Shown here: positions 4,217 through 4,294 of the stretch, piece after piece
How positions within the stretch are numbered: position 1 is the first letter of the stretch
Layout: every line of letters begins with the position of its first letter
From: Escherichia coli
Lineage (GTDB): Bacteria; Pseudomonadota; Gammaproteobacteria; Enterobacterales; Enterobacteriaceae
Assembly: GCF_003334385.1 (NCBI RefSeq)
Contig: NZ_QOWN01000084.1
Direction: 5' to 3' (one strand)
Length of the DNA stretch: 4,294 nt
Program-made: the position numbers and the translations under genes
The notes under the pieces: model-generated
The model's input: only the letters and a program-made list of their open reading frames with translations
Told to the model about the DNA's origin: nothing
Database searches by the model: none

Positions 4217-4294
4217 TAGACTGGCCCCCTGAATCTCCAGACAACCAATATCACCTAAATAAGTGATAGTCTTAATACTAAATAACTGATCCTA
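4217..4294 (+). mobile_element. Left terminal region of an IS2-like insertion sequence (IS3 family), truncated by the window edge
   Basis: TAGACTGGCCCCCTGAATCTCCAGACAACCAATATCACCTAAATAAGTGATAGTCTTAATACTA matches, from memory, the left terminal inverted repeat and adjacent sequence of E. coli IS2 (TAGACTGGCCCCCTGAATCTCCAGACAACCAATATCAC...) with very few differences over about 60 bp. The last 15-17 nt of the window diverge from what I recall of canonical IS2. The transposase genes would lie beyond the window. Confidence 0.6.
4274..4294. repeat. Right copy of the 21-bp inverted repeat (lies inside the IS2-like terminal region)
   Basis: Reverse complement of 4274-4294 equals nt 1-21 at 19 of 21 positions, by direct comparison of the sequence. 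Confidence 0.5.

Follow-up and report, generated by a model that had tools for sequence, protein, structure and literature searches.

IS2, an insertion sequence (IS) of the IS3 family in Escherichia coli, is bounded on its left by a 42-bp inverted repeat (IRL) whose sequence was published by Lewis et al. (PMC3299598), and the OrfA docking site and the promoter P_IRL are further landmarks of the same element (PMC3299598). Elements of a second family, IS630, duplicate the dinucleotide TA and prefer CTAG as their target, as stated in a passage of PMC2170065 that cites Tenzen and Ohtsubo (1990, 1991). Here, we analyze a 4294-nt stretch of E. coli DNA (contig NZ_QOWN01000084.1, assembly GCF_003334385.1), referred to at its full length as the window, in which a chaperone-usher fimbrial operon is followed by the beginning of an IS2 sequence. 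A first-pass annotation had taken positions 4217–4294 for an IS2-like element abutting the operon. Our analysis indicates that 4217–4280 is very probably an inert fossil of the IS2 left end, made up of the IRL and 22 further nucleotides, which was cut by the nested insertion of an IS630-family element that was itself later deleted or rearranged. The features on which this reading turns are as follows:

Positions 4212–4216 (no strand assigned): TTTTG, the 5 bp directly to the left of the IS2 end, read in the sequence.
Positions 4217–4280 (+ strand): IS2 nt 1–64, a solo left end, with the IRL at 4217–4258 and its 3′ limit at the TA (4279–4280) of the IS2 CTAG.
Positions 4281–4294 (– strand): 14-nt right-end tip of a second IS630-family copy, inverted relative to 1–14 and sitting in the IS2 CTAG; it runs on for 217 bp in related contigs (element nt 935–1152).
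Positions 1–14 (+ strand): 14-nt right-end tip of the upstream IS630-family copy (element nt 1139–1152), located by BLAST with a complete copy (L013, described below) and by reading the sequence.
Positions 15–16 (no strand assigned): TA adjoining the upstream IS630-like tip, read in the sequence; the next base is G, giving TAG, the right half of a CTAG target.

The left end of IS2 and where it stops

As the reference for IS2 we used a complete 1331-bp copy from an E. coli chromosome (L002, 3018–4348), whose annotation names an IS3-family transposase and a programmed frameshift. In a BLAST comparison with this copy, window 4217–4280 matched IS2 nt 1–64 at 63/64 positions (98.4%, E about 1e-25). 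The published 42-bp IRL, TAGACTGGCCCCCTGAATCTCCAGACAACCAATATCACTTAA (from PMC3299598), is identical to window 4217–4258 at 41 of its 42 positions, the sole mismatch being a T to C change at IS2 nt 39, which corresponds to window 4255. Of 5426 complete E. coli genomes, 4818 carry the same IS2 end, as do more than 4400 plasmids; on one of these plasmids, CP100064, it is followed by a coding sequence annotated as ‘IS3-like element IS2 family transposase’. The IS2 identity of 4217–4280 is far above chance, and to this extent the first-pass annotation was right. The spacing that it had given also holds: IS2 starts at 4217, which is 112 nt beyond the pilin stop codon (4103–4105) and 71 nt beyond the end of the terminator T-run (4146).

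Insertion of IS2 gives a 5-bp target duplication, and TTTTG at 4212–4216 is presumed to be its left copy. Window 4201–4216 resembles the left flanks of IS2 copies elsewhere, namely tgtaagttcatatttcg between yqeI and yqeH in L002 and cataattttt near sta1 in L019, and many BLAST matches reach into the flank to the left of 4217. Shared ancestry of these 9–16 nt was considered and rejected, because the contexts differ (yqeI-yqeH in L002; sta1/IS1 in L019). The likeness is limited to an AT-rich ‘ataatttt’-like stretch, and as read from these flanks it suggests a preference for AT-rich targets, or chance, rather than common ancestry. One related contig (L012, 95–273; a JGI contig) holds another IS2-like left end, which has diverged (84% identity to IS2 nt 1–180) and is situated at a distance of about 10 kb upstream from the pilin gene.

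The match to IS2 ends abruptly. Window 4281–4294 reads aataactgatccta and departs from IS2, whose own continuation is gtttttagactagtc. In L002 and L019, uninterrupted IS2 past the break reads ...ATACTAGTTTTT, and the element itself runs on through ...TAATACTAGTTTTTAGACTAGTCATTGGAG... to ATG; the window instead reads ...TAATACTA up to the break and AATAACTGATCCTA after it, and then ends. To follow the sequence beyond this point, we relied on 13 related contigs, 10 of which (L003–L012) were found through the exact 186-aa pilin and 3 (L020–L022) through a scan of metagenomes for the 25-nt flank 4192–4216; in most of them the DNA searched extended up to 10 kb to each side of the pilin gene. All 13 are 99.8–100% identical to the whole window (9/13 at 100%). 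When they were compared with full-length IS2 by BLAST, nt 1–64 proved to be the only IS2 DNA at the junction in 13/13 contigs, and it was identical in all of them. Within the DNA searched, orfA and orfB of IS2 were found in none of the 13, and the 41-bp right inverted repeat (IRR), expected about 1.3 kb away, was likewise missing, with no match to the right end of the 1331-bp IS2 in L003–L012 or L020–L022. Neither an intact IS2 nor an empty site occurred among the 13 related contigs; the flank scan, which covered metagenomes for either arrangement, returned the three further contigs only, all with the identical junction. What is missing from IS2 here thus amounts to 1267 of 1331 bp, comprising orfA, orfB with the frameshift window, and the IRR.

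The helix-turn-helix (HTH) gene that does lie downstream belongs to another family. The 126-aa HTH_Tnp_1 protein encoded 650 nt downstream scored 94 bits against the model for the IS66-family TnpA (cutoff 74) vs 29 bits against the IS2 InsA/TnpA model (cutoff 229), and in some contigs this IS66 TnpA is followed by an IS66 TnpB and an IS66 transposase. The first-pass annotation had expected orfA/orfB with a –1 frameshift beyond the window, and had itself named the absence of transposase genes immediately downstream as the observation that would tell against it; no IS2 transposase genes lie directly downstream in the related contigs. An IS2 element is therefore not present, and of the segment first assigned to it the last 14 nt (4281–4294) are the terminus of an IS630-family element. 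The presence of a recognizable IS terminal repeat at the end of a contig is no proof of an IS, as is shown by the present case of a 64-nt solo end that a nested IS630-family insertion has cut.

The nested IS630-family insertion and the alternatives

The 217 bp that lie past the break in a related contig (L008, 10737–10953) are 97.7% identical to one end of a complete element on plasmid pCFSAN004179G (L013, 2501–3652), a copy of 1152 bp with a TA at either side. The 343-aa protein of this complete copy, annotated as an IS630-family transposase, scored 256.7 bits against NF033545 (cutoff 100). The last 14 nt of the window are exactly the terminus of the complete 1152-bp element, a terminus that was read next to TA in both L013 and L014, and the break falls exactly at the TA (IS2 nt 63–64) of the CTAG at IS2 nt 62–65. 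The two ends of the complete copy have AATA.CTG in common at the tip and are little alike otherwise over the first 40 nt. The locus itself keeps only C-terminal coding fragments of the IS630-family transposase.

The same IS2 site carries an IS630-family element in another plasmid. In the Klebsiella plasmid OW849273 (L001), IS2 1–64 is followed by an IS630 variant (3065–4217) and then by IS2 63–98, with the TA duplicated; the variant is 82% identical to the element here and is in the opposite orientation. As read from its sequence, the insertion in OW849273 (L001, 3001–4253) is an independent event at the same IS2 CTAG, and it supports the proposal of a nested insertion. A similar partial match was seen in the Shigella dysenteriae plasmid CP027028. 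IS2 nt 50–77 form an imperfect palindrome centered on the CTAG, which may make this CTAG a recurrent target of IS630. When PLSDB was searched with the IS2/IS630-like junction and with the predicted reciprocal junction, there was no match covering at least 80% of the query; the partial matches reflect the imperfect IS2 palindrome around the CTAG and insertions of the L001 type.

Past the break, the related contigs show in order the 217-bp IS630-like piece, a 164-bp fragment internal to a Tn3-family transposase gene (L008, 10954–11117), and an IS66-family element whose left end (GTAAGCG...) starts at L008 11118. On pETEC_74 of E. coli E24377A (L014, 2501–2800), the same IS630-like right end (nt 882–1152) is cut by the same IS66-family left end (gtaagcgtacagcctgaac...), and IS630-like and IS66-family elements recur together on plasmids of enterotoxigenic E. 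coli (ETEC).

The arrangement can be accounted for by three steps. IS2 would first have inserted 112 nt past the pilin stop codon, beyond the terminator and in the same orientation as the operon. An IS630-family element would then have entered the TA of the CTAG at IS2 nt 62–65; here the exact junction is seen and the event itself is proposed. Finally, deletions or rearrangements would have taken away the remainder of IS2 and the larger part of the IS630-like copy, in an order that the present arrangement only suggests. Several observations weigh against this account. A progenitor, in which an intact IS630-like element would sit within IS2 in this orientation, was not found in PLSDB, nor was the reciprocal junction. 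The presumed left copy of the 5-bp IS2 target duplication has no right counterpart, there being no IRR in any related contig. The window alone holds just 14 nt of the IS630-like element, so that its identification rests on contigs identical to the window. In addition, with the OrfA docking site intact and P_IRL probably kept, the stump could still allow weak transcription or titration of OrfA.

At the other edge of the window, positions 1–14 read gaggagcagttatt and are identical at 12/14 positions to the reverse complement of 4281–4294. The upstream fragment in the related contigs is 412 bp long (element nt 741–1152; L008, 6062–6470) and ends at window 14, the window as a whole corresponding to L008 6457–10750 at 100% identity. 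Inverted IS630-like copies, each truncated on its outer side and each adjoining a TA, thus enclose the operon and the IS2 stump, an arrangement that the first-pass annotation had missed. The two copies are identical at 213/218 positions, and 2 of the 5 differences fall within the terminal 14 nt. The window starts and ends at the outermost differing base, where both copies become identical, and the protein that represents the usher cluster comes from an ENA contig whose length is exactly 4294 nt. The window is accordingly one complete short-read contig, with a repeat as its limit. The analysis of the junction in this way explains the contig end, which marks the start of the exact inverted repeat copies, and for work on the fimbrial operon it shows that the AT-rich island extends from window 15 to 4216.

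Such a bracket raises the question of whether window 15–4280 (4.27 kb, the operon plus the IS2 stump) was the cargo of a now decayed IS630-based composite transposon, moved onto the plasmid by the outer ends. The inverted, closely similar copies next to TA and the contrast between an AT-rich cargo and flanks of about 50% GC would fit, and composite transposons associated with IS630 and targeting the TA in CTAG have been shown experimentally, according to a passage of PMC2170065 citing Tenzen and Ohtsubo (1991). If this were true, a pair of bacterial ISs of the Tc1/mariner type would have moved a chaperone-usher adhesin operon that had not been described before onto plasmids carried by E. coli of the human gut. 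We consider it unlikely. The outer (left) ends are absent from both copies, of which nt 741–1152 and 935–1152 remain, so that there is no outer TA duplication to compare; no second genomic context of the unit was seen among the 13 contigs; and the AraC-family regulator that accompanies operons of this kind is located outside the bracket, a position better explained by separate insertions into an island that already existed. Mobility of the bracketed segment as a composite is conjectural for the past and impossible now.

The IS2 stump itself keeps the IRL, the OrfA docking site TAAATAA (4256–4262) and TGAT (4264–4267), with which the weak extended –10 promoter P_IRL begins. Its preservation for a function, either in weak outward transcription from P_IRL or in serving IS2 OrfA as a decoy operator, would be in keeping with the intact docking site and extended –10 TGAT and with the invariance of the stump across two haplotypes. 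These haplotypes differ, however, at only 5/4294 positions (SNPs at 1199, 1450, 1618, 2407 and 3757), so that invariance over 64 nt is uninformative. On the + strand downstream there is nothing coding, only antisense transposase debris; a promoter scan returned no sigma-70-like site at the stump; and the single substitution falls in residues 39–48, which are protected by OrfA/transposase (PMC3299598). A retained function is accordingly very unlikely, and most likely the stump has none. Nor does it mark a mobilizable unit, a possibility raised in the first-pass annotation: since the IRL, which stands alone here, is the end of IS2 that is inactive as a donor (PMC3299598), and since neither a transposase nor an IRR is present, the stump is unable to transpose or to mobilize the operon. 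With the flanking elements dead, the operon is not currently mobilizable by them.

The reading of the first-pass annotation, that an intact IS2 (orfA/orfB, –1 frameshift) starts at 4217 and continues past the window, and that it may have truncated the operon or may mark a mobile unit, has in its favor a genuine IS2 left repeat and the fact that the same end precedes the IS2 transposase at other sites. It is refuted by the sequences of the related contigs and keeps scarcely any probability: the IS2 match ends at nt 64 in the window and in 13/13 related contigs, the genes downstream are of the IS66 family, no IRR is found, and on the side of the operon the insertion lies past a terminator hairpin, with no remnants of genes detected. 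An assembly artefact, i.e., a chimeric join or a contig end in collapsed repeats, might be suspected of a short-read contig that ends inside repeats, yet it can be dismissed almost entirely, the junction and its continuation being identical in 13 contigs from independent NCBI, ENA and JGI assemblies, including contigs of 125 kb and 137 kb (CP065621.1).

The chaperone-usher operon and its distant relatives

The operon to the left of the fossil IS2 end comprises the following features:

Positions 187–930 (+ strand): fimbrial periplasmic chaperone, 247 aa; Pfam PapD_N/PapD_C; best NCBIfam match LpfB at 116 bits (cutoff 360).
Positions 920–3358 (+ strand): fimbrial usher, 812 aa; Pfam PapC_N/Usher/PapC_C.
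Positions 3545–4105 (+ strand): pilin-like subunit, 186 aa from MFKLNK; the exact protein is in 507 collection blocks (24 contigs were read) and is named ‘fimbrial protein [Escherichia coli]’; source names assign the proteins to E. coli or Enterobacteriaceae.
Positions 4122–4146 (+ strand): hairpin resembling an intrinsic terminator, with a 10-bp stem (4122–4131/4135–4144) and a T-run ending at 4146, from RNA folding.

By Pfam, a PapD-like chaperone, a PapC-like usher and a pilin are all present, which places the operon in the chaperone-usher family. All NCBIfam matches are below their equivalog cutoffs, so that the operon belongs to no named fimbrial system. Outside its own cluster the nearest relatives of the usher are only 33–34% identical, a word-based search for homologues of the pilin returned its own cluster only, and a near-identity search with the operon (window 1–4216) found nothing in PLSDB or in the 5426 complete RefSeq E. 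coli genomes. The chaperone-usher genes have a GC content of 0.29–0.40, and their neighbors on the plasmid include ccdAB, parA, stbAB and the microcin B17 genes; several of the carrier contigs are ENA and JGI metagenome assemblies. The operon is AT-rich, plasmid-borne and flanked by ISs, which supports this part of the first-pass annotation, where the AT-rich composition was noted and plasmids and genomic islands were named as typical settings of IS-flanked fimbrial loci.

The hairpin after the pilin gene folds at –13.7 kcal/mol (z = –3.1), and 0/200 shuffled sequences were as stable. A simple consensus scan for terminators did not list the hairpin at 4122–4144, probably because some of the T-run is taken up into the stem, and we relied on the fold instead. 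An Rfam scan of the window returned nothing at E <= 1. Between the usher stop codon and the pilin ATG there is a gap of 186 nt (3359–3544), with an alternative upstream GTG at 3506, and promoter-like matches within 3359–3544 were on the minus strand only. In two carrier contigs the usher gene is split by a frameshift (an A added after 1307 in L009 and a C lost at 1720 in L011), and on this evidence the operon is decaying in some strains.

To assess whether the operon is complete, we compared gene order with three distant relatives, no truly IS-free orthologous locus having been found:

E. coli relative (L015): a single subunit (184 aa) precedes the chaperone, no adhesin gene follows the usher, and an AraC-family regulator is encoded divergently.
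Salmonella relative (L016): a single subunit (203 aa) precedes the chaperone, and the usher is followed by a gene of about 300 aa with a Pfam Fimbrial domain; a regulator gene was not called.
Hafnia relative (L018): two subunits (190 and 185 aa) precede the chaperone, the usher is followed by a comparable gene of about 300 aa, and an AraC-family regulator is encoded divergently.
Window locus: single subunit after the usher; no adhesin.

In 2/3 relatives the usher is therefore followed by a gene of about 300 aa, and the one in Salmonella probably encodes the adhesin. The order in the relatives is subunit(s)-chaperone-usher vs chaperone-usher-subunit, with no two-domain adhesin, here, and the pilin shares 26% identity with the subunits encoded ahead of the chaperone in Hafnia. 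Between the pilin stop codon and 4217 there is no partial open reading frame, and a tblastn search with the subunits and adhesins of the relatives found no remnants of a lost subunit or adhesin within 10 kb. We see no evidence that IS2, lying past the terminator hairpin, truncated any gene, and the suggestion in the first-pass annotation that it may have removed the end of the operon finds no support here.

Upstream of the operon (L008, 2277–6470) lies a gene for a 272-aa AraC-family regulator, with 29% GC and 42% identity to the regulator of L015. The region of about 3.5 kb between this gene and the chaperone includes a rve_3/IS3-family fragment, an IS91-family transposase gene and IS630-like debris; the regulator and the operon were probably once adjacent. 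The upstream IS630-like insertion lies only 172 nt before the chaperone start, and if any part of the operon was lost, it is as likely a culprit as IS2.

Comparison with known systems

Compared to IS2 of the IS3 family in E. coli, the locus is alike over nt 1–64 (63/64), a stretch that takes in all 42 bp of the IRL together with the OrfA docking site and the beginning of P_IRL. It differs in being a stump without the remaining 1267 bp, a solo and donor-inactive end rather than an insertion sequence. To IS630 of Shigella sonnei, and to the IS630/Tc1/mariner family more widely, it is related by a terminus identical to that of complete 1152-bp copies and by insertion at the TA in CTAG, whereas the window has 14-nt tips only, with fragments of 217 bp and 412 bp in the related contigs. 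With composite transposons of the Tn5/Tn10 type, and with the IS630 composite of Tenzen and Ohtsubo (1991), it shares two inverted copies of one IS around a cargo; it differs from them in that the outer halves are deleted and neither an outer target duplication nor a second context is known.

The locus also resembles the mosaics of IS fragments found around colonization-factor and virulence loci on ETEC-type F plasmids, in that an AT-rich operon with an AraC-family regulator is set here amid debris of IS91, IS110, IS630, IS66, IS2 and Tn3 on a plasmid. ETEC plasmids such as pETEC_74 carry the same IS630-like and IS66 fragments; the operon here, however, is not a named colonization factor. The significance of the stump extends little beyond annotation: as a kind of feature, a solo IS2 end among IS remnants next to the fimbrial operon of a plasmid is nothing new, and scars of this sort are ordinary on plasmids of E. 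coli.
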